From IMG/VR virus record IMGVR_UViG_3300036801_000089, positions 1-50,707 of that record: DNA of 50,707 nucleotides. The stretch is one strand, 5' to 3'. The position numbers and the translations under genes were made by a program. Under the pieces are notes generated by a model that saw only the letters and a program-made list of their open reading frames with translations, ran no database searches and had not been told where the DNA came from. The DNA comes from a virus (taxonomy: Duplodnaviria > Caudoviricetes). Positions 1,216-46,121 of the stretch are shown here, one piece after another. Position 1 is the first letter of the stretch. Each line of letters begins with the position of its first letter.

Positions 1216-2027
1216 GCGTAGATGCGATCAAAAAATTCTTGGAATCAGCGACCGAGTACCCGGACAATACGCCGATCACGATTGGCGAACAGCAGATTCC
1301 TCTTGGATCTCTCCGGCAACTGAATGCCTCTGACCGCGCCGCGCTTTCCGACCGCATCAAGCAAGTCGAAACGAAGGAAAGCGAACTCAACACCCGGCAG
1401 CAGAACATCGTGGACCTGGCGCAGAAGGCACAACAGGCGTATGCAGCCGCCGAAGAAGCCCGCAAAACTGCGACCACACGGCAACCGGAACCCGGCGCCG
1501 ACCCGTTCGCCGATCCGTGGCTTGCTCCGGTAAAAGGCGCACTCGATGCCCGCGACAAGAAGATCGACGACCTCACTAACCAGCTCAAGACCGTGCTGGG
1601 CACCGTGACGCAGGCTGCAACCGTGTGGGCACAAGACCGCTGGGACCGCGAATACGATGGCCTGAACTTTGGCAAGCGCGACAAGAAGCCTACCCGCGAT
1701 GAAATCCTGAAATTCGCCCAAGAAAACAAGCTGGTGGACCGTCACGGAATGCCCTCGATCCGTGAGGCATGGAACAAGATGTCGGAAGCCGACCGCATGG
1801 AAGAAGCACGCAAGGAAGCCATCGAAAAAGGCCGGGAAGAGGGTCGCATGGAAGCGATGGCCGCGCGCGTCACGCCTCCGGGAGTGTCAGGCATCGGGCA
1901 AGGGCCGGCAGCGCAACCGCGCAAGATCGGGCCTGAGACGGACGTGCTGGGCGATTTGTACGGCGACGCGATTAAAGACCCTGAGCTTCGAGCAATGATC
2001 GAGCAAATGGGTCCAGGTTTGATGTAG
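1212..2027 (+). CDS. putative capsid scaffolding protein
   Basis: Coiled-coil, charged protein directly upstream of the major capsid gene; GGAGGT RBS before GTG 1212. Confidence 0.65.
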   Translation: MSVDAIKKFLESATEYPDNTPITIGEQQIPLGSLRQLNASDRAALSDRIKQVETKESELNTRQQNIVDLAQKAQQAYAAAEEARKTATTRQPEPGADPFADPWLAPVKGALDARDKKIDDLTNQLKTVLGTVTQAATVWAQDRWDREYDGLNFGKRDKKPTRDEILKFAQENKLVDRHGMPSIREAWNKMSEADRMEEARKEAIEKGREEGRMEAMAARVTPPGVSGIGQGPAAQPRKIGPETDVLGDLYGDAIKDPELRAMIEQMGPGLM

Positions 2028-2053
2028 GGATTTTTTCCTAAAAGGAGCCTTAA

Positions 2054-3058
2054 ATGGCACTCTCAGTCGGAACTGGAATTAATCAGCCTAGTGCGTTGCT
2101 CGTCAACACGCTGAACTCCATCGCGCAGAAAATGATCTTCCCGAAGGTGGCCGATCTCGTGTTTCAACCGAGTCCGACCTTCAGCTACTTGAACCAGTAC
2201 GCCAAGAAGTACAACGCAGGGGCCGAAATTGTGTACCCCTTGCTGACCACCAAGATCACCACGCGCGGTTCCTACTGGGGCGACCAGCTATTGCCGACTT
2301 CGGCGATTGACGCCATCCAGCCCGCTGACCAGGTGTGGCGCGGCTATTTCCAAGCGGTGACGCTGCCCGTGATGGACATTGTGATTGGCCGCGGCGGTCC
2401 GGTGGGCCTTGATCTGGTAAAGACCTACGTGCAGGCGGCAGCAGGCTCGATGCTGGACATGCTGGCCGAGGCGGTAGCGGGGAACTCGCCATTCAATTCG
2501 GCGACCGACCTTGACTCGATCAGCGCATGGGTACTGTCTACCACGAATACGATTGCGGGCATCAACCGCTCGACGAACACGTTCTGGCAACCGCAGGCGA
2601 ACCAGTCGATTGCTGGCTCGCTGACTCCGGCGAAACTACTGACTGCATATTTCTTGGCGACTTACGGGTACGATGAACCCAACCTGCTGATATTAAATAA
2701 TACCGACTTCGCCAAGTTCGAAGCACAGTTCACGCAGAACTCCAGTTCGGCAGCTTCGACAACCATCATCCGGGCGACTGACAACTACGCGGACACAGCG
2801 CCAATCCAGACTTCGTTCCGGTATCACATGCGGTTCAAGAACGCCGTGGTACTCGCCGACCAGCATTTTCCGGCAGGGACAGGGTATCTGCTGAATACGA
2901 AGTACATATGGATGATCTATAACATGGGGAGCTACTTCCGTATGACCCCGTGGATCATGCCTTCGAACCAGGATGTAATCACGGCGCGCATACATTTGAT
3001 CGCGCAATTGGGCTGCAACCGCCCGATCGCAAACGTAGCCCTCACGAATTTGAGCTAA
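2054..3058 (+). CDS. major capsid protein
   Basis: 334 aa, strong AAGGAG RBS, position after scaffold, capsid-like C-terminus (YLLNTKYI...LGCNRP). Confidence 0.75.
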   Translation: MALSVGTGINQPSALLVNTLNSIAQKMIFPKVADLVFQPSPTFSYLNQYAKKYNAGAEIVYPLLTTKITTRGSYWGDQLLPTSAIDAIQPADQVWRGYFQAVTLPVMDIVIGRGGPVGLDLVKTYVQAAAGSMLDMLAEAVAGNSPFNSATDLDSISAWVLSTTNTIAGINRSTNTFWQPQANQSIAGSLTPAKLLTAYFLATYGYDEPNLLILNNTDFAKFEAQFTQNSSSAASTTIIRATDNYADTAPIQTSFRYHMRFKNAVVLADQHFPAGTGYLLNTKYIWMIYNMGSYFRMTPWIMPSNQDVITARIHLIAQLGCNRPIANVALTNLS

Positions 3059-3090
3059 CGAGATTCGGTAGCAGGACAAGGAGAGTTTCA

Positions 3091-3597
3091 ATGGCAATCA
3101 ATGTCAGTTTAGAGCGCACATTCCCAGGATTTGGTGTCTCCTCACTGCAATCCATCCAACGCGCCACCGGGATTGCCGTCAGTTCGGGGACCACGTACTA
3201 CGTTCCCGGCACATCTTCGAACAGCGTGGCCGGACTCTTGGTGCCCACCGTCACGGTAGGGCGAGTGCGCGTGAAGGTCTACAACGGCAGCGGCACATCT
3301 CCAACGCTGACGAAATTGCAGATCATGGGCTTCGACGGAACGAATAGCGTCGTGATTGCCGACTGGAACTTTGGCACGGCGGTTACGCTGTCCTCGACGA
3401 GCTGGGCCGACCTGATGACTGACTTTATCTGCGATACGGCGCCATCGACGACCAGCGGCGGTGCAGTCGGGTTTTTGATTGGCAGCGCCAGCGCGGTCAC
3501 TGGCAACGGCGGGATTCAGTGCATCAAGGTCATTCCAACGCTGGGCGGCACGGGTCCAGCCTGCACGATGGACGTAGAGATTTTCGGCCTCATTTGA
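3091..3597 (+). CDS. putative capsid decoration/cement protein
   Basis: G/T/S-rich beta protein right after the capsid gene; AGGAG RBS. Confidence 0.5.
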   Translation: MAINVSLERTFPGFGVSSLQSIQRATGIAVSSGTTYYVPGTSSNSVAGLLVPTVTVGRVRVKVYNGSGTSPTLTKLQIMGFDGTNSVVIADWNFGTAVTLSSTSWADLMTDFICDTAPSTTSGGAVGFLIGSASAVTGNGGIQCIKVIPTLGGTGPACTMDVEIFGLI

Positions 3598-3616
3598 GGC
3601 GGGAAACAATTCTCCA

Positions 3617-3675
3617 CTGGTCGGCAGCGAGCCGGGGCTGGGCAAATCGCCCGGTTTCCGGCTCGTACCAGTTTT
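3617..3675 (+). terminator. long hairpin, probable intrinsic terminator or processing site after capsid genes
   Basis: GAGCCGG-GGCTGGGC/GCCCGGT-TTCCGGCTC inverted repeat followed by TTTT. Confidence 0.5.
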
Positions 3676-17091: not shown

Positions 17092-18099
17092 ATGAAAACC
17101 TTAATCGTATTCCTGCTTCTGGCCGCAACAGCGAACGCCCAGCGTAATGCTGACCCGACGATGACCATTCCTGTTCTCCCATCGCCTACGGCGACGAGCC
17201 ACTCGGTCACGCTTTCATGGACGGCTGCGACTTCCTGCGGATATGACCTGACTGGAAAGGTTCCGCAGACCTGTTCTGGATATAACGTGCTGCGAAGCCA
17301 GACTCCCGGAACGGAAATAGCATTATCGCCTGCGCTCGTTCCGGGGACGAGTTTCGTCGATACCAGCGTGGTTGCCGGACAAACGTACTACTACGTCGTG
17401 ACCACGATGAATTCAGCGAGCATCACGTCGGTATTCAGCAACGAAGTTCAAGCCGTGATTCCCGTAGACATCAGCTTTACGCCCGTGCGGATAAAGCCTG
17501 GTACGGCCTATACGGATTCGCAAGGAAATCTCTGGTCGGTGGATACGACGTATTGCGTCGGGGGAAGCACCTTTACCACACCCCATGCGATTGCCGGCGC
17601 GTTGCCTTCTCTGGCTGATGGAGCTTTGTATCAGACCGAACGCTACGACAATCCCGGCGTAACAACCTGCACGATCCCGGCGCCCGCAGGAACTTATTTG
17701 CTGACGATCAAGTTTTCCGAAATCTACTTTACGGCGGTGGGCCAGCGAGTTTTCAATGTGACTATCAACGGGGTCCATGTTTTATCAAATTTCGACATTT
17801 TCGCGGCAGCGGGCGGGGAATACAAGGCCATCGACAAGACGATTATGGTCACCTCGACAGGTACGATCATTGTTTCGTTCGTGAAGGGCACTGCGAACAA
17901 TGCCAAGTATGATTCGATTCAACTGGTGCAAGCTGGAACACCGCCCCCGCCAATAATGTCAACGTCTTGCTCATGGCTCACGGACGGGGTGACCTGGAGA
18001 TGCGATACGACGACAACCAACATGACCACGGGGACGGGAATTCTAAGTATCGTAACTAGTGGTACACTTTCCAATACGAATAACGGGATACACCCATAG
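17092..18099 (+). CDS. secreted FN3 + malectin-domain protein
   Basis: Signal peptide; SVTLSW...YNVLRS...YYYVV...S..SNEV (FN3); LYQTERY...FSEIYF...QRVFNV.ING..VLSNFDIFAAAGG (malectin). Confidence 0.8.
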   Translation: MKTLIVFLLLAATANAQRNADPTMTIPVLPSPTATSHSVTLSWTAATSCGYDLTGKVPQTCSGYNVLRSQTPGTEIALSPALVPGTSFVDTSVVAGQTYYYVVTTMNSASITSVFSNEVQAVIPVDISFTPVRIKPGTAYTDSQGNLWSVDTTYCVGGSTFTTPHAIAGALPSLADGALYQTERYDNPGVTTCTIPAPAGTYLLTIKFSEIYFTAVGQRVFNVTINGVHVLSNFDIFAAAGGEYKAIDKTIMVTSTGTIIVSFVKGTANNAKYDSIQLVQAGTPPPPIMSTSCSWLTDGVTWRCDTTTTNMTTGTGILSIVTSGTLSNTNNGIHP

Positions 18100-19213: not shown

Positions 19214-19414
19214 ATGGGTTTTCTATTCTCGTTTCTCGTTCTGATCATCATCCTAGGATTAATTTGGTGGGTCGTATCTGTATTGCCGATTCCCGAGCCA
19301 TTCAAAACCATCGCACTCGTCGTTCTTGTGGTGGTCTGCCTGCTGTATCTGCTGTCCATGCTGTTCGGGATGGCGCCGGCGTTCCCGGTGTTTCGGGGAC
19401 CGTACCACTACTAG
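19214..19414 (+). CDS. small two-TM membrane protein (Thivi_2564-like)
   Basis: LIILGLIWWVV..LPIPEPFKTI..VV pattern; AGGAGG RBS. Confidence 0.65.
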   Translation: MGFLFSFLVLIIILGLIWWVVSVLPIPEPFKTIALVVLVVVCLLYLLSMLFGMAPAFPVFRGPYHY

Positions 19415-19830
19415 ACCCACTGCCCTGTGCGCGTTTGCTCCGCGAGCCGTTCTGCGCGCGCTCCCACCTGAGTCGCCCAGCGAGACTCTAGCATTTCCGA
19501 CGCTGCACGCTCCCAATCGCCCTGCGCGAACGCGGACAGCATACGAGGGAACCCTTCTAGGCCAGCGAATCCCAAATTGAAGGTCATATTCGCCAGAACG
19601 CCTTGCCGCGCCGGATCAAGCGCCTCGAAGTAGGGTAGGCGCACCTGTAGTTGGGTGAGCACTTTCTGGATGTCATTGGAGAGAAGTAAGTCGATCTCTG
19701 TGTCGGAGAGTCCCACGTCGGTTAGGTTGCGGCCCACGCCGATCGTGGTCTTGCCCACTGTGTCGAGGTAGGGGAATTTTTCTACCCCCTCGTCACGTCG
19801 TAGTTGCGAGGAGATTGAATCGACGGGCAT
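19411..19830 (-). CDS. endolysin, GH24 phage lysozyme
   Basis: LRRDEG...YLDTVG.TTIGVGRNL catalytic E/D/T motif; NM.FNLG, S.WATQVG.RA. Confidence 0.9.
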   Translation of the reverse strand: MPVDSISSQLRRDEGVEKFPYLDTVGKTTIGVGRNLTDVGLSDTEIDLLLSNDIQKVLTQLQVRLPYFEALDPARQGVLANMTFNLGFAGLEGFPRMLSAFAQGDWERAASEMLESRWATQVGARAERLAEQTRTGQWV

Positions 19831-19843
19831 ATTATTTTAATAA

Positions 19844-20716
19844 TTACACCGTGACTTGCAGCATATCCGCTTCCATTTGCATGAGGTTCAGGCCCGTTGG
19901 CGTCATATGGCTCCTGCGGTTGATGAACTCCGGCGAAATAAGCGCGTGTACTTCGTCGATGTATGGACCGTTCGAGGGATCGTTGTACAGCCAGAACGCC
20001 TGGGTGATTTCGATTAAGCCGCCCCAGGAGATGCAGGTAAAAGTAACGGTGCCATCGGCGTTGGTGACGTATTTCGGAACCCATACAGCGTGGCCGCCCC
20101 AGGAGCCAGGGACCGCATCCGGCCCGCTCGACACATCCCACACGTTTAATCCCTGAACCGATACGGGTAGCTGGATTCCAAGAAACACTCCGCCGAACAG
20201 GTGAATCGCTTGCTTGATCTCGGCAATGTTGCGCGGATTGGGATCGGCGTACATGCTCAGAGAGTAGGAATAGAAACTCGACTTGCGCCACGCATTGAGT
20301 ACGCTGATCTCATAGCAGCCCTGGTCGGTGCGAGGCTTTCCGGGCACATAGCCGCACCAATTCTCGTAGCCAGCGAGAATCACAGAATCGGGAGGAGTAT
20401 CGGCGAAGCTGCGCGCGGCGGCTGAAAATATCTGCTGCGCGTGGCCGACGGCTGCAATCACGCAATCGCCGAGCGCGTCATTGAGCATCATCGAGAAATC
20501 CTTGATGCCCATCGTGTAATCCACCGAGGGTGGCGCCGGAGGAAGCGTTGAAAGGAGATATTTCCCGAGCTTGAGCGTGCGAGGGTCGATGATGGCTGGT
20601 TTCTTGCCGAGTTTGCAGATCGGGACGGGATGGTGATGGTGGTGGAAATGGTGATGAGGTTCACGCCGATTTTCGGCGTGGTGGTGGTGATGATGATGGC
20701 GGCGTTTCATGTTCAT
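19844..20716 (-). CDS. papain-like (C1-type) cysteine peptidase with poly-His N-terminus
   Basis: ND.LGDCV (Cys), GGHAV (His), ISWG motifs. Confidence 0.7.
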   Translation of the reverse strand: MNMKRRHHHHHHHAENRREPHHHFHHHHHPVPICKLGKKPAIIDPRTLKLGKYLLSTLPPAPPSVDYTMGIKDFSMMLNDALGDCVIAAVGHAQQIFSAAARSFADTPPDSVILAGYENWCGYVPGKPRTDQGCYEISVLNAWRKSSFYSYSLSMYADPNPRNIAEIKQAIHLFGGVFLGIQLPVSVQGLNVWDVSSGPDAVPGSWGGHAVWVPKYVTNADGTVTFTCISWGGLIEITQAFWLYNDPSNGPYIDEVHALISPEFINRRSHMTPTGLNLMQMEADMLQVTV

Positions 20717-21237
20717 CGGATACTCCTCAGCACAGCTTTAATGACTTTATCACGGCTTTCGTCGATTGTTTCCGCGGCGGTGTTGCATTCAATCTCTGGC
20801 GTTAGAGGTGGCTCATACGGATCGTCGATTCCGGTGAAGTTCCATAATTCTCCGGCTCTGACTTTGGCATACAACCCTTTCGGATCACGAGTCTCGCAGA
20901 CCGAAAGCGGTGCGTGTACATGCACTTCAATGATTTTACCAAGTGTTTTGTAGACTTCCTGCCTAGTGTCGTAATAGGGAGAGATGACGGCAACCATCAC
21001 GATGATGCCATTGCGAGCGAGCAAATGCGCGACGTAACCGATTCTGTGGATGTTGTCGTCACGGTCAGTCTTAGTGAATCCCAAGCCGCTGGTGAGATTC
21101 TTGCGCACATCGTCACCATCTAGAACTTCGACTGGCAGTTTGCGCCTGATAAGTTCTTTGGCTACTGCCTGACAAATGGTGGTTTTGCCAGAGCCGCTGA
21201 GTCCAGTTAGCCAGACGACCAAGCCTTCTTTACTCAC
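20713..21237 (-). CDS. cysC: adenylyl-sulfate (APS) kinase
   Basis: WLTGLSGSGKTT P-loop, LDGDDVR, LGF...DR..NI.RIG, RDPKGLY, FTGIDDPYEPP. Confidence 0.95.
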   Translation of the reverse strand: MSKEGLVVWLTGLSGSGKTTICQAVAKELIRRKLPVEVLDGDDVRKNLTSGLGFTKTDRDDNIHRIGYVAHLLARNGIIVMVAVISPYYDTRQEVYKTLGKIIEVHVHAPLSVCETRDPKGLYAKVRAGELWNFTGIDDPYEPPLTPEIECNTAAETIDESRDKVIKAVLRSIR

Positions 21238-22867
21238 GACGCCACCAACGGCAAATCCAGCGGAACAATTTCTGGAGCCAACTAACGTGGTGATGATGAT
21301 GATGGCGTTCGTGCTTTCGGGCCGTATCTATAATTTTGGCAGCCACGGCGATCATCAACTTGCGATTGTTCTCCGGCACCTGCTCCCACGGGACCGCTGA
21401 GGCTTTCCGTGTCTCGTACCCGAAACCCGGAGCAAGGTGCTCATAAGTATCGTGAAAGCGTTTTGCAAGTCGTTCTTCCTCCGTGGCAGGCTCGGTATAG
21501 ATTTCAGCAGCAGCGGCGATAAACTTGTTTTGCTGAGTATTATTATTCCACGGAAAGGGAGCATCGGGGACAGGTTTCCCGAGAAATTTACACAGTACGT
21601 TCCATCCATCGCTGGCTGGGATGTCGAGAATCAGCAAGTCATCGGGACGATATTTGAAATACCGCTTCACTTCCGCGTTGTGACGCCGATACCGCGCAAG
21701 GAAGACCTCGGTGTTGAAATCTTTCTGGCCGTACAGGATCGTGTGAATGTGATTGGTGAAGGGATATTTATCCCACACCCAGCGGGTAGGATTGTAGCGG
21801 TAGTCCCAAAGCCTCTCCACGCTTTTGATCCAATTCCGCTCGTCGCGCACCGTGAGGATGAACTTCGAGCCGGGATACAAACTGTCTAATTGCCGATAGA
21901 GCAAGGGAATCGGGTTATCGGAGAGCGCGTACCAGCGTTCGAGAGTTTTTGATCTGCCCTGCTGCGACTCCCACCAGATCAAGGGAGCTTCTCCGGCACC
22001 CCAATGAAAGCTATCGAAGCCGAGAGCCTGAAATGCTTTGTGTAGCGAGCTGGTCGCCGTCTTGTGCATTCCAATTCCGAAGATGCGGGTCGGCAGCGGT
22101 GTAAGCGTGATGGTGCGCGAGTCGGGATGACGCCGCACCGCGCCGAGGCCGAACCGCCCGTAATTCACAACTGTTTGCGTGCGAGCGGCCACGGTCAGTA
22201 CATGCTGCTTGGTTTCATACTTCTGCGCCTCGGGATACTCTTTGAAGCGAATCTCGGCGGGATGGGGGATCGTATTCAGGAAGCCGTTGTCGATGTGCCG
22301 CATCGAATAGCCCATCCGTTGCAGGCGGAAGATCATGTCCATATCTTCGCTGCCCCAAACATCGAAAATCTCGTCGTACCCTCCGGTCTTGATGAAGTCT
22401 TGCGCCCGGATTGCCAGGCGACCGGCATAGCCACGCATCGGACGGGAAGGACCGTGGGGAAGGCTATGGATGAGCGGAAAATCAGGGCATAGGAATATCC
22501 GCGGCTCGGCGAACTGGTCGCTGATAAATTGAGCGAATCCGAGGCCAGTGTAATTGTCCGCATCGAGGGTAACGAGAATGTCCGCGCCTTCGAGGATGCC
22601 GCACCTGGCCGCTAAATTTTTAGCGTGGGCCATACGAAACGGCCCAGGCACCGGATCAAGGAAAGAGTAGACGACTAGCCGACCAGATTCGATGTCCTGC
22701 TGGTGATTCCTAAAGAGATAAGGAAGCAGATCATCAGGGCTGGAATAGTCAAGGACGACGAATACGGCGTTCGCGTAGGATGCGTTGTCGGCGAGATTGC
22801 GGGGAAGGGTTGACTTGAGATGCTGGGCGCGATTCTTGCACGTAGTGACGAAGGCGATTCGTTTCAT
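21230..22867 (-). CDS. GT-A glycosyltransferase (GT2/GT7-like) fused to a PAPS-dependent sulfotransferase
   Basis: N-half: TTCKNR, AKNLA, LDAD, GGYDE...WGSED. C-half: GIGMHKTATSSL (5'-PSB) and FILTVRD..W..S (3'-PB). Confidence 0.85.
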   Translation of the reverse strand: MKRIAFVTTCKNRAQHLKSTLPRNLADNASYANAVFVVLDYSSPDDLLPYLFRNHQQDIESGRLVVYSFLDPVPGPFRMAHAKNLAARCGILEGADILVTLDADNYTGLGFAQFISDQFAEPRIFLCPDFPLIHSLPHGPSRPMRGYAGRLAIRAQDFIKTGGYDEIFDVWGSEDMDMIFRLQRMGYSMRHIDNGFLNTIPHPAEIRFKEYPEAQKYETKQHVLTVAARTQTVVNYGRFGLGAVRRHPDSRTITLTPLPTRIFGIGMHKTATSSLHKAFQALGFDSFHWGAGEAPLIWWESQQGRSKTLERWYALSDNPIPLLYRQLDSLYPGSKFILTVRDERNWIKSVERLWDYRYNPTRWVWDKYPFTNHIHTILYGQKDFNTEVFLARYRRHNAEVKRYFKYRPDDLLILDIPASDGWNVLCKFLGKPVPDAPFPWNNNTQQNKFIAAAAEIYTEPATEEERLAKRFHDTYEHLAPGFGYETRKASAVPWEQVPENNRKLMIAVAAKIIDTARKHERHHHHHHVSWLQKLFRWICRWWRRE

Positions 22868-22868
22868 G

Positions 22869-23468
22869 CTAGTGAATTGAGATTTCTGGATGCCCGGCTG
22901 CTGCGGCAACCGCATTATAGTCGTGCTTAAAGTCGCTTACGCGATTGTAAAACTTAGGAGTCACCGTGAGTTGTCTCGCCCCGACGTGAAAGGAAGTTGT
23001 GAGCGTCTTAGTGCCCGTTGCGGGAAGCTGGCCCATAAATCCCTCGATGGCGGCGAGGATCACATTCGCTAGGCCGATAACGATATTCAAGATTGGATTG
23101 TTGCCGATATTGAGCGCGTTGAAGAAGGTTTGGAAGTTGTTCACGATGTCGCTTAGGAAGGTGCGAATCTTCGCCAGCAGGGTAGCCTTGTCAGTTGGAT
23201 TCGCGTCCGCATTGTACTCACTGATGGCAGCGGAGAGGTCGGCAAAGGTGGCCTTGATGAGCACGATAATCGCGGCGGCACCTGGAGGCATCAGCGGGCC
23301 AAGAACGGTCACGATGCCCTGGAGCGCGGTTAGGCCAATCGGAATCCACGTAAGGATGTCATTGAACACGTTGCAGCCACCGAGAAACAGTGCTGAGGTG
23401 CCAGCGGAGAACAGTAGGAGCACCTTACCCGTCCACTTGCTGAAATCCCTGCGAGTCAAAAGATTCAT
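22869..23468 (-). CDS. twin-arginine (Tat) lipoprotein
   Basis: TRRDFS Tat motif, hydrophobic stretch, LGGC lipobox. Confidence 0.7.
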   Translation of the reverse strand: MNLLTRRDFSKWTGKVLLLFSAGTSALFLGGCNVFNDILTWIPIGLTALQGIVTVLGPLMPPGAAAIIVLIKATFADLSAAISEYNADANPTDKATLLAKIRTFLSDIVNNFQTFFNALNIGNNPILNIVIGLANVILAAIEGFMGQLPATGTKTLTTSFHVGARQLTVTPKFYNRVSDFKHDYNAVAAAAGHPEISIH

Positions 23469-39152: not shown

Positions 39153-40184
39153 GTGAAAGCCGCGATAGTTCTGACCTCGATCAACGACTGCGAAGAACTC
39201 CTCGACGGGTACCTTGATAATCTCAGCAGGTTTGGACGCGAAGCCAGTATTATTTTAATACCGGACATGAAAACGCGAGCGCAGAGGATTCGCAAAGCGG
39301 TCAAGTGTCCGACGATGGGGGAGCAAGATTCATTCCTCAAGATCGTGGGTTTACCACCGCAAGAAATCCCTTTCAACTCCGACAATCGCCGCAACGTAGG
39401 CTACCTGATGGCGCTGGTCGAAGGCGCCGAGATGATTGTGTCGATCGACGATGATAACTTCTGCCCAGTGAGCGAAGACTTTATCGGGGCGCACCTCGCG
39501 GCGCTGGAGAAGCACAACCCACTAGTCAGCACTGAAGATGGCTGGTACAACAATTGCAATCTGCTGAAAATCATGGGGCGGGAGATCTTCGCCCGCGGAT
39601 TCCCCTACTACGCGCGAAAACCGTTCAAGATGCACACACAATACGCGCAAGATGGGGAAGTGGTCATTAATGCGGGGATGTGGACAGGCGCGCCGGATGT
39701 GGATGCGATTACCTGGCTCCAGCGTCCCGGACACGTGGCGCGGTGCACGGGCAATGCGGTGTTGGCTCCCGATACTTGGTGCCCCATCAATTCACAGAAT
39801 ACGGCAGTGCGGCGGGACGCGATGGCCGCATATTATTTTGTGTGCATGGAAGCGCCGATTGATCGCTACGGAGATATTTTTCAAGGGTACTTCGCATTGA
39901 AGTGCGCGAAGCACTTAGGATTGACGGCGCGGTTTGGAACTCCAGTGGCGACGCATCGGCGTAACTCGCACAACTATCTGGCCGACGCGGAGAAGGAAAT
40001 TTTCGGGATCAGGCTCATGGAAGAATTGCTTCCGAAGTTGGTTGAGCATAAACTGACGGGCAGTTCGTTCGGCGAAGCGTACTTGTCGCTCGCGGATTTT
40101 ATCGAATCGCAGGACGCACAGTTTTTCAAGAACACGGCGCGCCGAATGCGGCTGTGGGCTACGACGTGCCAAAGGATCGGATGA
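39153..40184 (+). CDS. RGP/STELLO-like GT-A protein (UDP-arabinopyranose mutase-like)
   Basis: RRNVGYL.A....IVSIDDDN, GMW.G.PDVDA, PINSQNT and RYGDI motifs. Confidence 0.7.
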   Translation: MKAAIVLTSINDCEELLDGYLDNLSRFGREASIILIPDMKTRAQRIRKAVKCPTMGEQDSFLKIVGLPPQEIPFNSDNRRNVGYLMALVEGAEMIVSIDDDNFCPVSEDFIGAHLAALEKHNPLVSTEDGWYNNCNLLKIMGREIFARGFPYYARKPFKMHTQYAQDGEVVINAGMWTGAPDVDAITWLQRPGHVARCTGNAVLAPDTWCPINSQNTAVRRDAMAAYYFVCMEAPIDRYGDIFQGYFALKCAKHLGLTARFGTPVATHRRNSHNYLADAEKEIFGIRLMEELLPKLVEHKLTGSSFGEAYLSLADFIESQDAQFFKNTARRMRLWATTCQRIG

Positions 40185-40231
40185 AAGCTGAACACCTTTC
40201 TGTGAAGTGGTCGAAGGCATCGTAGGCCGAA

Positions 40232-40897
40232 ATGAGAATGCTTGATTTATTTTGCGGACGTTGGGGCTGGAGTAAATCCTTTGCTCTGCGCGGGTGGCAT
40301 TGCATCGGTCTTGACTTGGTGCGCCCACCTGAGATTCCGTTTGCGAACTGCGAATTCATCTGTGAGGACATTCTCAATGTCGACGCGCGTTGGGTTAACA
40401 ATGACAGATTCGATTTCATCTGCGCTTCGCCGCCGTGCCAGCAGTTTTCGGTGCATGGCATGAAGCACTTCCATCCGAATCCGCCGTACCCGAAATTGGG
40501 CATTCAGCTATTCGAGTATACGCGGAGAATTTGCGAGGAATCAGGCGTGCCTTACGTGATTGAGAATGTGCGAGCGGCACAGCAATTCGTGGGCAATGCC
40601 GTGCATCACTGCGGGCCGTTTTATTTGTGGGGAACGGGAGTGCCGCCGCTGGTAAGCCGCGGTGTGAAAAAGGGCATTGATTGGGGATCGTCAAAGGCCG
40701 TGAACGCCATGGCAACTCAGGAAGAAAAGCGCAAGTATCGTGACAAGCCGTACTACCACAACCGCGCCTTTTCAATGAGCCTCAAGCGCCATGAAGATCA
40801 GGCCCGAGTGGCCACGATCCCGCCCGAACTTTCCAACGCCGTGGCCGATTATGCCAAGAGGCTTTTGGAACAGAGAGCGGTGAGCACGGCATCGTAG
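40232..40897 (+). CDS. C5-cytosine DNA methyltransferase (short form)
   Basis: LDLFCG..G (motif I), SPPCQ (IV), IENV (VI). Confidence 0.8.
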   Translation: MRMLDLFCGRWGWSKSFALRGWHCIGLDLVRPPEIPFANCEFICEDILNVDARWVNNDRFDFICASPPCQQFSVHGMKHFHPNPPYPKLGIQLFEYTRRICEESGVPYVIENVRAAQQFVGNAVHHCGPFYLWGTGVPPLVSRGVKKGIDWGSSKAVNAMATQEEKRKYRDKPYYHNRAFSMSLKRHEDQARVATIPPELSNAVADYAKRLLEQRAVSTAS

Positions 40898-40926
40898 GCC
40901 GAAAAGATTTGGGGCTAAAAGCTGAC

Positions 40927-41121
40927 ATGTCGATTGGAAACCCAAGCGAACACTATGCTCTGCTTTCAGAGCTGGAATATTTTCACATGGACCGTGAACA
41001 ACTAATTTTCGTAACGATTTGCAGGGAGCTAACGAAGCGAGGAAAGATTCAACCCTTTAAAGCGGCGCACCTCGCGGAAATTGTCGAGGCTGAACTTTTG
41101 CGGTGGGAAAAGTGGCAATGA
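40927..41121 (+). CDS. hypothetical protein
   Basis: Lies between 20-bp repeats. Confidence 0.45.
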   Translation: MSIGNPSEHYALLSELEYFHMDREQLIFVTICRELTKRGKIQPFKAAHLAEIVEAELLRWEKWQ

Positions 41122-41174
41122 AAGATTTGGGGCTAAAAGCAAAAGACCCGTAACGGACATTTGGGAGGCGGACA

Positions 41175-41459
41175 GTGAAAATTTCCAAGTGGGTTGACAT
41201 GTCACAGGAAGTAGAAATTGAAATTGGCTGTGACGACATCCGCGGTGCACTAGCGGAACAGTTTGCCATCGTCGCGGTTGACGGGTCGCATGCGGGCGAA
41301 CTGACGTTGGCGTTTAGCTGCATCGCTAAGTTTTTTAATGCCCTCGCTGATGAACAGATAGCGTTATTGACCATCAATCAACGCCGTGTCGTTGGGAACT
41401 ACCTGAGCGATCAGGCCAAGCGATTCGCAATCACCGAAGTTGCGGGCCACGCGGTCTAA
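41175..41459 (+). CDS. hypothetical protein
   Basis: GGAGG RBS. Confidence 0.55.
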   Translation: MKISKWVDMSQEVEIEIGCDDIRGALAEQFAIVAVDGSHAGELTLAFSCIAKFFNALADEQIALLTINQRRVVGNYLSDQAKRFAITEVAGHAV

Positions 41460-41553
41460 CAGAACCAAGATTTGAGCACGGCGACCGAGCACGCAGCACC
41501 AAAGTAGAGTTGCGGGCCACGCGGTTTCAGAAAAGATTTTTGGGATAAAACCT

Positions 41554-42912
41554 ATGGCTAAAGTGATCCTTGCTGGCGGTCCAAGTTTTGCCCTGTTCAA
41601 CCCGTCGCTTCACGCGAGCCTTGGGCTTCTCTACCTCGCATCTGCCCTGCGCGAAGTAGGCCACGAAGTTAAAATAATCGACTGCCACAAAATTTCCACG
41701 TTCGATCCCGAAACCAACAAACTGATCGTCCGCCACGAGGACATGGAACCCTGCGACATCCTGGGCGTGTCGATCGTTACCCCGAACGCGGAGTTTGGCG
41801 GGCAGCTCGCCGCGGCGTGGCCGGCGAAAGTGAAAGTGGCTGGCGGGCCGCATGTGACCTACATCATCGAAGGGCCGCACGCGCACTTCAAGCAGAAGAA
41901 GTATTTCGAGGGCTTCGATTTCCTGATGACCGGGGAGTGCGAGGAATCGTTCGTCGAGTTTTGCAACAAGTGGGACCGGGGAGAGGATGTAACCAAGGTT
42001 GCTGGTGTGGCATGGTTCGGGCCGCTCGGGATGCAGCACCTTCCCTCACCGCCGCTGCCTGATGTGACGAAGATGAAAACTCCCGCATATGATCTGTGGG
42101 GAAATTATTCTAAGGGAGGGCTTAATGTCACTTCCATTCACGGGACCAGTATCGACGTGGCAGAAAGAACCATCGGCTCCCTCTGGACCGCAAGAGGATG
42201 CCCCTACGGTTGTTCCTTTTGTGCCGACGCCCGAACCAAACTTCGAGAAGAAACCTTTGACCAAATCGAATCGGAAGTCAAAGCCCTTGCCGAAATCGGA
42301 GTAACGGCGTTACGCGTTTGGGATGATGTGCTCACGATTAAGGCCAAGCGTTGCCGGGAACTCGCGGCACTCTTCCACGACTACGGAATGCTGTGGCGCG
42401 GCTGGAGTCGAGTGAACTTGATGGACCCTCAGCTATTCAAAGACCTCGCTGCTCTCGGTTGCACCGAAATGGGATTTGGCGTAGAGCACGGCTCGCGTCG
42501 AATGCTGAAGGCGATGAACAAAGGGACAACACCAGAGGCGAATACCAAAGGGGTGAGGCTCTGCCAAGATGCGGGGATCTCGGCTCGCGCCTACTTGTTG
42601 ATTGGTTTTCCCGGTGAAACTTGGGAGTCCATCGAGGAAATGCGGCAATGGATAGAAGATTGCCACCCCGACGCTGCAAGCCTGCACATGTTTCAACCAT
42701 ACCCAGGGTGTGAAGTGTGGAACGTGCCGGAGAAATTCGGCGTTACGATTCCACCCGATTCGTTCTCGAAGATGTGGGAACTAAATGATGACGACCCCAG
42801 CACAACGGTTCTTGATCTTCCGACTATGAACACAGCAGAATTATTTGAAGCCCGAAAGATGCTCCACAACTGGATTACCGAAAATATCTCTCTGCGTTTG
42901 GCTACCCGTTGA
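41554..42912 (+). CDS. cobalamin-binding radical SAM enzyme (class B methyltransferase-like)
   Basis: SLGLLYLAS.L and GGPH (B12 domain); RGCPYGCSFC (CxxxCxxC); G.E.GS; IGFPGET; PYPG. Confidence 0.9.
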   Translation: MAKVILAGGPSFALFNPSLHASLGLLYLASALREVGHEVKIIDCHKISTFDPETNKLIVRHEDMEPCDILGVSIVTPNAEFGGQLAAAWPAKVKVAGGPHVTYIIEGPHAHFKQKKYFEGFDFLMTGECEESFVEFCNKWDRGEDVTKVAGVAWFGPLGMQHLPSPPLPDVTKMKTPAYDLWGNYSKGGLNVTSIHGTSIDVAERTIGSLWTARGCPYGCSFCADARTKLREETFDQIESEVKALAEIGVTALRVWDDVLTIKAKRCRELAALFHDYGMLWRGWSRVNLMDPQLFKDLAALGCTEMGFGVEHGSRRMLKAMNKGTTPEANTKGVRLCQDAGISARAYLLIGFPGETWESIEEMRQWIEDCHPDAASLHMFQPYPGCEVWNVPEKFGVTIPPDSFSKMWELNDDDPSTTVLDLPTMNTAELFEARKMLHNWITENISLRLATR

Positions 42913-43622
42913 GACTCAGTATTATTTTAATAGGCCGCTCCGATAATTACGGCGGCGACTTCGTAGGCCGCTTAAACCGCTCACTGGAAAGCATCATGCC
43001 GCTCGGTGCCGAAGTGATCTTCGTCGAGTGGAATCCGCTCGGCGACCGCCCGCGCATCAACACTGAGATTCGACATCGCGGCGTGCGCATCATTACCGTG
43101 TACCCGGAAGTTCACCGCTCGCTGCCGGGACATGAATTGTTTCCAGTATTCGAGTACCGCGCAAAGAACGTGGGGATTCGCAGAGCAAAGGGCGACTGGA
43201 TTCTGTGTCTAAACTCGGACATCATCCTGAGCGAACAAATGCTGCGGTGCCTCACTTGCTCATTCGATGACACCTGTTTTTACCGAGCGCGGCGGCACGA
43301 CATGGACGGCGAGAGACTGGTGCAAATCTGTGATGGCCCAGGAGACTTCGTACTTATGCACAGGATTCGCTGGAACCATCTTCGCGGATACCTTGATCTG
43401 GTAAGCTACACACACCTTGACTCGCTGCTATTGTGGAATGCGCTCGACGCGGGCCTGCAAGATGCGAGGCTTGAGGCTCCCATCATCCACCAGGAGCACG
43501 ACCGCAGCGAACACAAACTGCGAACCGGAATCCATTCCAGCGACATGCCCAAGTTTATCGGAATGAAAAACGACGAGGATTGGGGACTCGCAAACCATCA
43601 ACTGCCCGAGGTGACGACGTGA
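42909..43622 (+). CDS. GT-A (family 2-like) glycosyltransferase
   Basis: R.D.YGGDF..R, AKNVGIRRA.GDWIL..NSD, GDF.L, HQEH. Confidence 0.8.
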   Translation: MRLSIILIGRSDNYGGDFVGRLNRSLESIMPLGAEVIFVEWNPLGDRPRINTEIRHRGVRIITVYPEVHRSLPGHELFPVFEYRAKNVGIRRAKGDWILCLNSDIILSEQMLRCLTCSFDDTCFYRARRHDMDGERLVQICDGPGDFVLMHRIRWNHLRGYLDLVSYTHLDSLLLWNALDAGLQDARLEAPIIHQEHDRSEHKLRTGIHSSDMPKFIGMKNDEDWGLANHQLPEVTT

Positions 43623-44629
43623 AGGTTGGCTTGCTATACCCGACAGTCGGTGCTCTCGTAGAAAAAATGGCGGCAATTTTCCCCGGACTCACCGTCATAG
43701 GCCCGCCCTGCGACGATCTCTACAAATGGGATAAGCGCATCCTGCCGCTCGCCAAGGCCAACGGACGCATCGCGGAGTGGAAGGAACTGGGCCTCGACAT
43801 TCACTTCGAGGAAAAGCCCTACAGCGAATGCGACTTCTCGAAGTTCGATCTACTGATCGAATCGGTCGAAACATTCAACTACGCTGCATCGTGGCGCGAG
43901 CACTGCACACGTATCGAGTGTCCCATTATCGTGTTCGTCTGCTGGTACGATTCCCCAGCCTACCTTCCGCACGACTACCTCAAGAAAATAGAAAACTTCC
44001 CAGTCCTGCTCGGGATGCCTTCGCACTTGAATGCGTGGCGCGCTGCGCTGCCTGACGTGAACCCCGCTGCTGTTCCGGTAGGCGACTGGTGGTTCGAGCG
44101 TCCGTGGACAGGAGTGCGCGAGGAAGCCTTGTTCGTGCTAGCGGGCAAGGACATCTGGCGCCCTGCGGACAAGACGGTGTGCGGCGTGGATCTGTGGGAA
44201 AAACTCTGTGAACGGTTTCCAGGAAAGATGCACCACCACGACGGAGCGATCGACTTCAAGACCTCGAAGCAGATGGCCGAGATGTGCAGCGAGTATCGCG
44301 TGTTCGTGAACCTCGACCGCAGCGGTGCGCGCCCACTGTGTACCTCGTTTACGGAAGCGGTTGCTGCGGGAATGCCCGTAATAGCTCGGAATCAGCCGGG
44401 ATTGTCCTACAAGGATTACATTAACGGAAACGGGGTCTGCACAGATAATTTCGACGAGATGTGTGATTTCATTGAGCAGTGTTTTGAAAACATGGAGTTT
44501 GCGCGGGAGTGCAGCCGCCAAAGCCGTAAGATTGGCAAAGCGTCATTCTCGGTCGAGGCGGTGCGCCCGACTTACGAAGAGGCGGCGGTGCGCGCGATGG
44601 CCGTGTTTCACCAGGGGCATTGGCGATGA
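43619..44629 (+). CDS. GT-B (family 4-like) glycosyltransferase
   Basis: YRVFVN...SFTEAVAAGMPVI...NG motif. Confidence 0.75.
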   Translation: MKVGLLYPTVGALVEKMAAIFPGLTVIGPPCDDLYKWDKRILPLAKANGRIAEWKELGLDIHFEEKPYSECDFSKFDLLIESVETFNYAASWREHCTRIECPIIVFVCWYDSPAYLPHDYLKKIENFPVLLGMPSHLNAWRAALPDVNPAAVPVGDWWFERPWTGVREEALFVLAGKDIWRPADKTVCGVDLWEKLCERFPGKMHHHDGAIDFKTSKQMAEMCSEYRVFVNLDRSGARPLCTSFTEAVAAGMPVIARNQPGLSYKDYINGNGVCTDNFDEMCDFIEQCFENMEFARECSRQSRKIGKASFSVEAVRPTYEEAAVRAMAVFHQGHWR

Positions 44630-45456
44630 TCTCCCTACTTCTCCCATCCCGCAAGCGCCCGGAGATTTTCGCACGCATGGTCGAATCGGTAAGAAAGACC
44701 GCGATAAAATATGTCGAGATTGTGGCTATGTTTGATGAGGACGACGAAGCGAGTGCCGAGGCTGCGAAGGTTGATCCCAAGACATGCGCCGATATTATTT
44801 TAATAGGACCGCGCCTGCGCCAGATGACCGTATATTGGAATCTATGCTTCGATCATTGCAAGGGGGCGATTGTCTGCCAAGCAAACGATGACATGGTGTT
44901 CACCACAAAGGGTTGGGATGTAATGGTCGAGGATGCCTTCGCAGCGGTGCCCGACAAGATCATGCTGGCGCACGGCTCCGATGTATTCGGTCACGGCAGT
45001 AACTTTGGACCGCACGCCTTCGTAAGCCGAAGGTGGGTCGAAGCACTGGGATATTTTATCCCTCCGTACTTTTCGTCAGATTTCGGCGACGCTTGGATTT
45101 GCGAGATAGCGAACATGCTCGGTCGCCGGCGCTTCCTGAATTTCAACATTGAACACAGACATTTTTCCCACGGCATGATGGAGCTGGACGAGAACACAGC
45201 CGAACGGCTCCAGCGGCACCGCGAGGATGATCCCGAAACGCTGTACTACAGTCCAGCGATGCAAGCGGAACGGCAGCGCGACGCTGAGAAACTAGCGAAA
45301 CTCATGGACAAAAACCTGAGCACAAAGGGCTGGTGCCCGCCGCATTCGAACATACGAAGCGCGGGGATGTGCCCGCATTGCGAGAGCCTGTCGACCGTGG
45401 CAGTGGGCGTGGGGAAGTTTTTTTGCAACCGCTGCGGAAAAGACTTCGTGAGATGA
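44626..45456 (+). CDS. GT-A glycosyltransferase with C-terminal zinc ribbon
   Basis: ISLLLPSR.RP, NDD, T.GWD, D.W..I, IEHRH; tail CPHCESLSTV...CNRCG. Confidence 0.8.
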   Translation: MISLLLPSRKRPEIFARMVESVRKTAIKYVEIVAMFDEDDEASAEAAKVDPKTCADIILIGPRLRQMTVYWNLCFDHCKGAIVCQANDDMVFTTKGWDVMVEDAFAAVPDKIMLAHGSDVFGHGSNFGPHAFVSRRWVEALGYFIPPYFSSDFGDAWICEIANMLGRRRFLNFNIEHRHFSHGMMELDENTAERLQRHREDDPETLYYSPAMQAERQRDAEKLAKLMDKNLSTKGWCPPHSNIRSAGMCPHCESLSTVAVGVGKFFCNRCGKDFVR

Positions 45457-46121
45457 AACTCGAACTCCTAATCCTTAGTATGCCAACCCGCGTAGAATTT
45501 CTGAAGCGGTTGCTTTTGTGTCTTGCACGTCAACGTGAGGGAGTTGGGAACGTAGCAGTGCGGATCAGAACATGCGATCCAAGCCTTACTCTCGGGGAGA
45601 ACCGCGAGCTATTGCGACGGGCTTCCAATGCCGAGTACATTGCTTTCGTCGATGATGACGATCTCGTGGCTCCAGATTATGTGTCCACAATTCTGCCACT
45701 ACTTGACGGCGTGGACCAAATTGGTTTTGAACTTCAATGCTATATCGACGCAGTAGCCCTGCCAAAAAAGACTATTCATTCATTGAGGCATACCGGATGG
45801 TTTGAAAATGCACTCGGATATTTTCGGGACATCTCGCATCTAAATCCGATGCGGCGCGAACTCGCGCTACTTGAACCGATGGAAGGCGGGCACGGAGAGG
45901 ACAAACGATGGTCGGATCGGATGCGCGGGAAGGTCAAGACGGAACACTACATCCCGCGAGTCATGTACCATTATTATTTTAATACGAAGAAGAATCAGGG
46001 TGCGCCGTGCCCGAAATGCGCGAGCGAATCAACGGTGCTGGTCGAGACGGGAACATGGTGCAACGGCTGCGGGGTTCTGTTTTCGGAACATCCTATTCAG
46101 AAGTCGTGTCTTTGGGTGTAG
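45453..46121 (+). CDS. GT-A glycosyltransferase with C-terminal zinc ribbon
   Basis: LGENR..L, EYIAFVDDDD, GED..W; tail CPKCASESTV...CNGCG. Confidence 0.8.
   Translation: MKLELLILSMPTRVEFLKRLLLCLARQREGVGNVAVRIRTCDPSLTLGENRELLRRASNAEYIAFVDDDDLVAPDYVSTILPLLDGVDQIGFELQCYIDAVALPKKTIHSLRHTGWFENALGYFRDISHLNPMRRELALLEPMEGGHGEDKRWSDRMRGKVKTEHYIPRVMYHYYFNTKKNQGAPCPKCASESTVLVETGTWCNGCGVLFSEHPIQKSCLWV

Follow-up and report, generated by a model that had tools for sequence, protein, structure and literature searches.

Several bacterial sulfotransferase loci reportedly carry their own supply of the sulfate donor 3'-phosphoadenosine-5'-phosphosulfate (PAPS), namely NodH with NodP/NodQ in rhizobia, RaxST with RaxP/RaxQ, and CyrJ with CyrN. 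Here we analysed a tailed-phage sequence (Caudoviricetes; IMG/VR virus record IMGVR_UViG_3300036801_000089) in which a gene for a glycosyltransferase fused to a sulfotransferase (the GT-ST fusion) overlaps cysC, the gene for an adenylyl-sulfate (APS) kinase. The DNA analysed, referred to as the window, was the whole linear record of 50,707 bases, with a CheckV completeness of 91%; genes for a large terminase, an endolysin and the major head protein were recognised in it by Pfam and PHROG scans. Our analysis made it very probable that the phage CysC feeds PAPS to the phage sulfotransferase.

The available text of PMC10117803 describes a glycosylation cluster of the giant virus Moumouvirus australiensis (ma457-ma468), which contains a SAT/APS kinase, a sulfotransferase, a glycosyltransferase and two papain-like proteins, and for which the authors proposed sulfated sugars, pending validation. 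Viral cysC has been assigned to assimilatory sulfate reduction in the available texts of PMC10914622 and bioRxiv 10.1101/2021.01.05.425418, the latter naming for viral CysC the same P-loop and DGD motifs that we found here. The word 'sulfotransferase' did not occur in the available texts of these two papers, supplements aside.

The GT-ST fusion gene and its overlap with cysC

The fusion is encoded on the minus strand in a 561-aa open frame at 21230-22915 (open reading frame list). The ATG at 22867 lies 1 nt past the stop of the upstream gene, and in an alignment of 32 family members the N-termini of the homologs began there; this ATG is most likely the true start, giving a gene at 21230-22867 and a predicted protein of 545 aa rather than 561 aa. 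Residue numbers follow the 561-aa frame, and invariance was judged over the 32 aligned members. The GT-A domain (approximately residues 17-265; 22121-22867) was matched by Glyco_transf_7C at residues 158-218 (E 2.3e-9, 37.2 bits, cut-off 23), and Glyco_tranf_2_2 scored 24.2 bits, under its cut-off of 27.3. Its invariant residues included the DxD at D118-A119-D120, as well as E190, D191 and D193 of WGSEDMD (187-193). The sulfotransferase domain (residues 277-462; 21530-22087) was matched by Sulfotransfer_4 (PF17784) at profile positions 1-214 of 215 (E 6.8e-37, 127.8 bits, cut-off 22.8; 129.4 bits at the same coordinates in a second search). Its 5'-phosphosulfate-binding (5'-PSB) and 3'-phosphate-binding (3'-PB) motifs are named and defined here as we take them to be for sulfotransferases. 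In the 5'-PSB loop, G280-L291 (GIGMHKTATSSL), the residues G280, G282, T288, S290 and L291 were invariant; in the 3'-PB motif, S365 was invariant and R357 was present in at least 90% of the sequences.

Structural comparison gave the same domain assignment. A PDB profile search with the sulfotransferase domain retrieved a Schistosoma sulfotransferase (4.6e-18), Cpz8 (9kf1; 2.3e-17) and SgdX2 (8y9p; 9.2e-15), with the 5'-PSB and 3'-PB motifs aligned. The AlphaFold2 (AF2) model of the fusion had a mean predicted local distance difference test score (pLDDT) of 80.7, with values mostly of 72-95 in the sulfotransferase domain. Foldseek matched the sulfotransferase half of the model to Cpz8 (9kf2; E 7.4e-10, template modelling (TM) score by target 0.74) and SgdX2 (8y9p; TM by target 0.75), and the glycosyltransferase half to the chondroitin polymerase K4CP (2z86; 4e-9), the heparosan synthase PmHS2 (8viw; 7.7e-9), GalNAc-T2 and beta4GalT1. 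The linker between the two domains was invariant in 32 of 32 aligned members. A sequence-only reading of this DNA had noted intact GT-A and PAPS-binding motifs in one polypeptide, and the conservation of the DxD, 5'-PSB and 3'-PB motifs (Pfam and the 32-sequence alignment) bore this out; the Pfam assignment that it had proposed as a check placed Sulfotransfer_4, Glyco_transf_7C and APS_kinase all over cut-off. Both domains of the fusion appear intact, and nothing suggests that either is inactive.

The fusion lies in a run of five genes on the same strand, from 23468 to 19411, in the order 199-aa protein, fusion, cysC, a 290-aa protein of phrog_19005 with a papain-like fold, and endolysin. Four of these genes are linked by a 1-nt gap, an 8-nt overlap and a 4-nt overlap, as read directly from the junction sequence. 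The stop codon of the fusion (TAA, 21232-21230) is inside GTGAGTAA and the GTG start of cysC, at 21237, is in the same GTGAGTAA, giving the 8-nt overlap; the sequence-only reading had been correct in that the two genes overlap. The stop codon of cysC (TGA, 20715-20713) in turn overlaps the ATG (20716) of the peptidase gene.

The 174-aa frame at 20713-21237 (minus strand) encodes CysC. APS_kinase (PF01583) matched this protein with E 3.4e-58 (196.4 bits, profile positions 2-151 of 152), and in NCBIfam it scored 250.7 bits with PRK00889 (cut-off 244) and 222.5 bits with TIGR00455 (cut-off 138.7). The P-loop GLSGSGKTT (residues 12-20) and LDGD (residues 39-42) were invariant across five phage CysC proteins. 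By these matches the protein appears to be a canonical APS kinase, and PAPS formation is predicted. ATP sulfurylase (PF01747), already reported as missing by the sequence-only reading, gave no match in the 50,707-base record, and neither did PAPS_reduct/CysD/CysH (PF01507), with control genomes positive in both searches; a complete PAPS-synthesis system, with its own Sat or CysD/CysN, was thus not found in the record.

The junction of cysC and the fusion was also spanned by contigs from two further soil metagenome runs, belonging to other studies, one of them identical over 390 nt and the other divergent, and the adjacency is therefore not an artefact of a single assembly. The operon was present in soil metagenome runs of three studies. 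Homologs of one operon gene were named from an Acidobacteriaceae metagenome-assembled genome (MAG) and from Acidicapsa ligni; that the phage came from soil and has a host among the Acidobacteriota is a reasonable but weak guess. Promoter-like and terminator-like sites between 19000 and 24000 were no more frequent than in shuffled sequences, and no tRNA gene was found in the 50,707-base record.

The C-terminal extension of the fusion (residues 463-561; 21233-21529), delimited by the 32-sequence alignment and modelled as helices of low pLDDT, holds a His6 tract and a Trp/Arg-rich helical tail, and was common only to the closest relatives (P0001-P0004). A RyR-like repeat was considered for this region, a guess that was not borne out; no Pfam family matched the extension. 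Histidine tracts occurred in two neighbouring proteins, as HHHHHH near the C-terminus of the fusion (21245-21300, minus strand), conserved in the four closest relatives, and as HHHHHHH and HHHFHHHHH at the N-terminus of the peptidase (20621-20707, minus strand), and they may bind metal. In a related soil contig (run X3, about 6-9% divergent), the C-terminal extension differed by 202 nt (window 21281-21484), and about 0.95 kb of extra sequence separated the 3' end of cysC from the start of the peptidase gene (window 20620-20712). The module thus varies by insertions among close relatives.

Linkage of cysC to sulfotransferases across phages

A protein search with the fusion gave 1,244 matches at E <= 0.001 among 8,000 scored candidates. 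The best 120 homologs were mostly about 450-470 aa long (median 465) and had the same two domains; beyond the four closest, relatives in this search were 56-67% identical to the fusion. Since a single-sequence query of viral contigs returned one fusion relative and no CysC relative, alignment queries were used instead, and with these the fusion was found at 38 viral-contig loci with 41-67% identity (46-67% among the 35 full-length matches). Cellular genomes, one for each of 185,579 species, contained three full-length copies, all in MAGs, labelled Solibacteraceae, Alphaproteobacteria and Deltaproteobacteria. In the ESM Atlas the fusion fell into clusters of 87, 54 and 285 members that were 97-100% viral, and a curated phage collection gave one weak match to the glycosyltransferase part only and no full-length copy. 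The neighbourhoods of the fusion differed widely among the other phages. In a census of 148 neighbouring proteins the top family, DNA_pol_A, accounted for 3 and several further families for 2 each, and the fusion had no constant partner apart from the peptidase and cysC. As judged by sequence comparison, the family is large, with hundreds of members, almost restricted to viruses, conserved across otherwise unrelated phages, and uncharacterised; it represents a new variant, nearly confined to viruses, of enzyme kinds already known.

Of the 38 other viral records that encode the fusion, 6 had an APS_kinase match; 3 of these were among the 13 records with a completeness of at least 90%. Four of the matches were strong (G001, G013, G016 and G025) and lay about 0.1-1.4 kb from the fusion, the fifth was atypical, its frame overlapping the 3' end of the fusion gene, and the sixth was weak and distant. 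Two homologs were triple fusions with CysC, which was N-terminal in P0049 and C-terminal in P0041; these opposite positions imply two independent fusion events. Where a phage with the fusion has cysC, the gene stands beside or within the enzyme, and most such phages do not carry it. The sequence-only reading had called the kinase a dedicated supply for glycan sulfation. The supply part of this claim agreed with the position of cysC in the phages that have it, and 'dedicated' needs qualifying, since most fusion phages are without cysC and CysC would therefore be an optional booster. The atypical fifth match (L024, 6245-7114, plus strand) has an APS-kinase-like P-loop domain (51.5 bits, first 90 profile positions) joined to a cytidylyltransferase-like domain with an HxGH-type motif; this protein may be an alternative supply of activated donor.

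A kinase carried by the phage makes sense because not every host has an APS kinase of its own: in the phylum to which one prophage host belongs, the enzyme was found in 89 of 121 sampled genomes, a tally that includes the unpublished genome G136. Among the hosts of prophages without a phage cysC, three genomes only, an APS kinase of the host's own was clear in two and weak (20.8 bits) in the third.

The linkage was also measured from the side of cysC, in the survey of phage cysC neighbours that the sequence-only reading had suggested. An alignment of five phage CysC proteins served as the query, and the best 80 of 210 confirmed viral loci were reduced to 64 non-redundant loci, for 63 of which the record was analysed. 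The whole records were searched for Sulfotransfer_1, Sulfotransfer_2 and Sulfotransfer_3, with the Sulfotransfer_4 fusion added; PF17784 was sought within 6 kb only, using a local profile. Distances were computed for the first batch of records and worked out by hand for the second. Of the 63 records, 35 had a sulfotransferase over the Pfam cut-off, at a distance from cysC of no more than 5 kb in 28 cases and no more than 1 kb in 16. The first batch contained 30 records with a sulfotransferase, and in 24 of them it was within 5 kb, compared with 5.7 +/- 2.0 by random placement, and none of 10,000 shuffles reached 24. Sugar-nucleotide genes were also located near cysC, with NAD epimerase/GDP-mannose dehydratase at 16 of the 64 loci, UDP-glucose dehydrogenase at 7, DegT aminotransferase at 4, and WavE-like genes as well. 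At one surveyed locus (L077, record G046; 1667-3643), three tandem sulfotransferase genes directly follow cysC. The curated phage collection contained five cysC records, including a Salmonella scaffold, and these were too few for a survey.

These counts also bear on the reading given in the available texts of PMC10914622 and bioRxiv 10.1101/2021.01.05.425418, in which cysC would be an ordinary auxiliary gene of assimilatory sulfate reduction that provides PAPS for the host CysH, its adjacency to a sulfotransferase being incidental. The PAPS_reduct family (PF01507) was found in 5 of the 63 records, over cut-off in 4, and in three of them (G073, G075 and G080) it was about 2 kb or less from cysC, as assimilation would have it. 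A sulfotransferase within 5 kb in 28 of the 63 records, against PAPS_reduct anywhere in those 5, points the other way; and among the 13 records at least 90% complete, a sulfotransferase occurred in 10 (within 5 kb in 7) and PAPS_reduct in none. The 8-nt translational coupling of cysC to the sulfotransferase gene, the triple fusions of CysC with the GT-ST enzyme, and a record without matches to cysH, cysD or sat all argue against assimilation as well, and we consider it highly improbable here. The view of the sequence-only reading, that this cysC supplies the sulfotransferase with donor and is not a sulfur-assimilation gene, stood up to the coupling, the missing sulfurylase and reductase, the linkage, the triple fusions and the survey.

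Several points weigh against the donor-supply explanation or against its extension to other phages. The absence of cysC from 32 of the 38 fusion-bearing records implies that the kinase is dispensable. The survey sampled the viral cysC genes most like this CysC, with many fragments and a few records labelled provirus, and the random-placement null takes no account of the clustering to which accessory genes are prone. The broad proposal that phages sulfate glycans by means of a virus-restricted GT-ST family, with phage cysC mostly a PAPS supplier for several sulfotransferase families, is almost evenly poised and falls just short of being the likelier outcome.

The acceptor and role of the fusion enzyme

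A phage-borne sulfation module acting on a glycoconjugate of the envelope was the best overall explanation of these data, and we regard it as fairly probable. The host ATP sulfurylase would make APS, and the phage CysC would phosphorylate APS to PAPS, making it available in infection whatever the host's own APS-kinase capacity. The GT-A domain would move a sugar from a nucleotide sugar onto an acceptor, and the Sulfotransfer_4 domain would most likely pass the sulfate from PAPS to this sugar or to the one next to it. The proposed site of action is the inner face of the membrane, with a lipid-linked glycan, a lipopolysaccharide or exopolysaccharide unit, or a cell-wall polymer as examples of the acceptor; the cell surface would be altered as a result, through receptor masking or lysis-related remodelling. 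The computed support covers domain identity, intact motifs, gene coupling, the linkage and fusion of CysC, and the general linkage of cysC to sulfotransferases; catalysis by the enzymes we infer.

The two domains probably act in sequence on one acceptor, because the fusion is constant, its linker is invariant, and other fusions of glycosyltransferases with Sulfotransfer_4 exist in bacteria. The bacterial examples include Sulfotransfer_4 domains fused to multi-glycosyltransferase proteins, which supports a glycan target. Alternatively, the sulfotransferase may act on a non-glycan acceptor (a small metabolite, a signalling molecule or a peptide), the sulfate maybe serving as an activating leaving group as in SgdX2, while the glycosyltransferase performs a separate step or has a separate substrate. 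The closest solved relatives of the domain are indeed small-molecule enzymes (Schistosoma SULT-OR, Cpz8 of caprazamycin synthesis, and the 'activating sulfotransferase' SgdX2), and the high conservation of the enzyme across diverse phages fits a universal small acceptor. A fusion that is constant, with the linker unchanged in all 32 members, is hard to square with separate substrates, and so are the repeated fusion of Sulfotransfer_4 to other types of glycosyltransferase and the abundance of sugar-nucleotide genes around phage cysC and sulfotransferases. We consider a non-glycan acceptor improbable.

A terminal hydrophobic 19-mer outside the conserved core was present in 13 of the 120 best homologs, C-terminal in 10 and N-terminal in 3. 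An acceptor in the envelope was favoured because some homologs have such terminal membrane anchors and because the gene stands among lysis genes (endolysin and C1 peptidase). The His6 tract and Trp/Arg-rich helix in which the fusion of this phage ends were counted on the same side. The endolysin, a phage lysozyme at 19411-19830 (minus strand), is the last gene of the run and was matched by Phage_lysozyme (E 2.4e-9) and phrog_7 (E 2.7e-17). The papain-like (C1-type) cysteine peptidase of 290 aa (19844-20716, minus strand) matched phrog_19005 with E 4e-29. Its AF2 model had a pLDDT of 87, and the best Foldseek match was xylellain (3ois, 1.4e-9), followed by cathepsins; residues N79, C85 and H209 were invariant in the homolog alignment. 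A sequence search of the PDB gave weak matches only (all E >= 0.25), mostly to the His-rich N-terminus. The viral structural neighbours of the peptidase included C1 peptidases of giant viruses and phages, some annotated with peptidoglycan-binding or muramidase parts, and we read it as a probable lysis-type peptidase. It is the commonest neighbour of the fusion, adjoining it in 12 of the 38 viral loci and in 2 of the 3 genome loci.

That the acceptor is a membrane-proximal glycoconjugate of the infected cell's envelope remains a tentative assignment, which we hold with somewhat less than even confidence, and a number of observations count against it. No hydrophobic anchor was present in 107 of the 120 homologs, and the nearest solved Sulfotransfer_4 structures (Schistosoma SULT-OR, Cpz8 and SgdX2) are named after small-molecule substrates, not glycans. 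Unrelated phages have versions of the enzyme that are 46-67% identical, which implies an acceptor that is itself conserved, whereas surface glycans vary. The near-confinement of the family to viruses is odd for a function of the lysogenic-conversion type, as is a window without an integrase match. Phage_integrase (tyrosine integrase) gave no match in the window, where 9% of the genome may be missing; of the 38 fusion-bearing viral records, 1 was labelled provirus, and the 148 neighbouring proteins included one integrase. With no integrase in the window and a family rare in host genomes, the profile of lysogenic conversion was not seen, in a search that left GtrA/GtrB outside its scope.

The main rival to an envelope acceptor is a phage protein, with O-glycosylation and sulfation of virion proteins (capsid decoration, tail or fibre) taking place late in infection, in line with a proposal made for giant-virus fibrils, and with the role of CysC the same. 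The restriction of the family to viruses agrees with such an acceptor, and the operon is on the strand of the endolysin, which would fit late expression. The glycosyltransferase fold also matches polypeptide GalNAc-transferases, the nearest cellular homolog of the glycosyltransferase part that we looked at (Pedobacter, L045) is in a peptide-type cluster, and five further predicted or weakly matched glycosyltransferase genes lie just upstream of the terminase in the window. The glycosylation cluster of Moumouvirus australiensis in the available text of PMC10117803 offers a parallel in the kinds of gene present. Yet the structural proteins of these phages are unrelated and the enzyme is nonetheless 46-67% identical among them, and the membrane anchors in 13 of the 120 homologs fit poorly with a soluble virion-modifying enzyme. 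Most loci, moreover, have no structural genes adjoining the fusion, and the papain-like neighbour resembles a lysis peptidase, not a glycan enzyme. We judge a virion-protein acceptor unlikely, and retain the envelope glycoconjugate as the preferred target.

Phages are known to glycosylate DNA bases, and the fusion may instead take part in DNA hypermodification, in which hydroxymethylated bases would receive a sulfated sugar. In keeping with this, the window encodes at 39-46 kb a fragment of a C5 cytosine methylase, several glycosyltransferases and a B12 radical SAM enzyme, and DNA_methylase and UDG each accounted for 2 of the 148 neighbouring proteins. However, homologs of the thymidylate-synthase-type hydroxymethylase were found in only 2 of the 38 fusion records and in none of the 13 near-complete ones, some homologs of the fusion have membrane anchors, and the 148 neighbours included no constant DNA-metabolism gene. 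Tet_JBP gave no match in the 38 fusion records, in a search whose control was also silent. A DNA target is unlikely, and we give it very little credence.

Other features of the window and of related loci were also recorded. A second cluster of glycan type is located at 39153-46121 (plus strand), just upstream of the terminase, and encodes an RGP/GT75-like protein (2.1e-17), a weak GT2 match, a weak GT1 match, and proteins of phrog_14945 and phrog_14775 annotated 'glycosyltransferase', together with the N-terminal part of a C5 cytosine DNA methylase and a B12-binding radical SAM enzyme. This cluster may make or attach the sugar borne by the product of the fusion, or may modify virions or DNA. 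A tail-region protein (17092-18099, plus strand) has a malectin domain (5.3e-21), a carbohydrate-binding fold, and this hints at a glycan as the receptor of the phage. At the start of the cassette (22869-23468, minus strand) lies the gene for the 199-aa protein, which is membrane- or lipoprotein-like: by eye, we spotted TRRDFSK, which we take to be a Tat-like signal, and LGGC, presumably a lipobox, and there are two more hydrophobic stretches. The protein had no Pfam, PHROG or NCBIfam match, and in other phages its gene was not conserved as a neighbour of the fusion; a membrane protein that serves superinfection exclusion or is connected with lysis is one possibility. In Pedobacter (L045, 4143-9593), the homolog of the glycosyltransferase part stands beside a PLOD-type glycosyltransferase, HlyD and a C39-peptidase ABC exporter, as is typical of loci that export modified peptides. 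Sphingobacterium (L046) has open reading frames of similar size at the same places, and in Marivirga the neighbour of such a homolog is a polysaccharide pyruvyl transferase.

Comparison with known systems

Metagenome studies routinely count viral cysC as a sign that phages promote assimilatory sulfate reduction. If phage cysC mostly serves phage sulfotransferases instead, as in the broad proposal above, it would draw host APS into sulfated glycans and away from cysteine, and such counts would say little on sulfur assimilation and would instead measure phage-directed sulfation of sugars. The product of the fusion, a sulfated sugar on a conserved target either in the infected cell or in the virion, would be a new phage-made chemistry of the surface or the virion; it might change adsorption, superinfection exclusion or lysis, or the way particles behave in soil. 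As a compact two-step enzyme, the fusion may also be of use in making sulfated sugars. Our literature search returned nothing relevant that joined cysC or adenylylsulfate kinase, sulfotransferase, and phage or auxiliary metabolic genes, and a phage, bacteriophage or viral sulfotransferase was absent as a named term from the open literature searched.

Both halves of the fusion have solved relatives. The sulfotransferase domain has the Pfam family, fold and motifs of Schistosoma SULT-OR (4mua/5tiv), Cpz8 (9kf1/9kf2) and SgdX2 (8y9p), with Foldseek E values of about 1e-9 and TM scores by target of 0.6-0.77; these enzymes differ from it in being stand-alone proteins of about 200-260 aa without a glycosyltransferase fusion, and are 18-26% identical to the domain. 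The glycosyltransferase domain shares the GT-A fold, the DxD and a WG-x-ED-type motif with K4CP, PmHS2, GalNAc-T2 and beta4GalT1 (GT2/GT7/GT27 type; Foldseek 4e-9 to 1e-6), but is only 13-17% identical to them, and its donor and acceptor cannot be read from the match. The CysC of this phage belongs to the same enzyme family as that of PMC10914622 and bioRxiv 10.1101/2021.01.05.425418, and has the same motifs, whereas its gene context points to use of the PAPS by a phage sulfotransferase. The Moumouvirus cluster, as given in the available text, is likewise viral and brings together the same four kinds of gene (kinase, sulfotransferase, glycosyltransferase and papain-like). It differs in its eukaryotic host, its bifunctional SAT/APS kinase of 642 aa, its separate sulfotransferase and glycosyltransferase genes, and its setting in a 12-gene sugar-synthesis cluster. 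In one giant-virus locus (L126), the hidden Markov model of the phage peptidase found no match.

The phage module resembles the NodPQ, RaxPQ and CyrN loci in that a sulfotransferase is linked to an extra activation enzyme and sulfation would be independent of the assimilatory pool. Those loci reportedly supply an ATP sulfurylase as well, or belong to cellular biosynthetic clusters. Unlike them, the phage module provides the APS-kinase step only, has a phage as its carrier, and has its sulfotransferase fused to a glycosyltransferase. A private PAPS supply, reportedly known from bacteria and proposed for giant viruses, runs counter in bacteriophages to the customary interpretation of cysC, and for them it seems to be new in the open literature searched.

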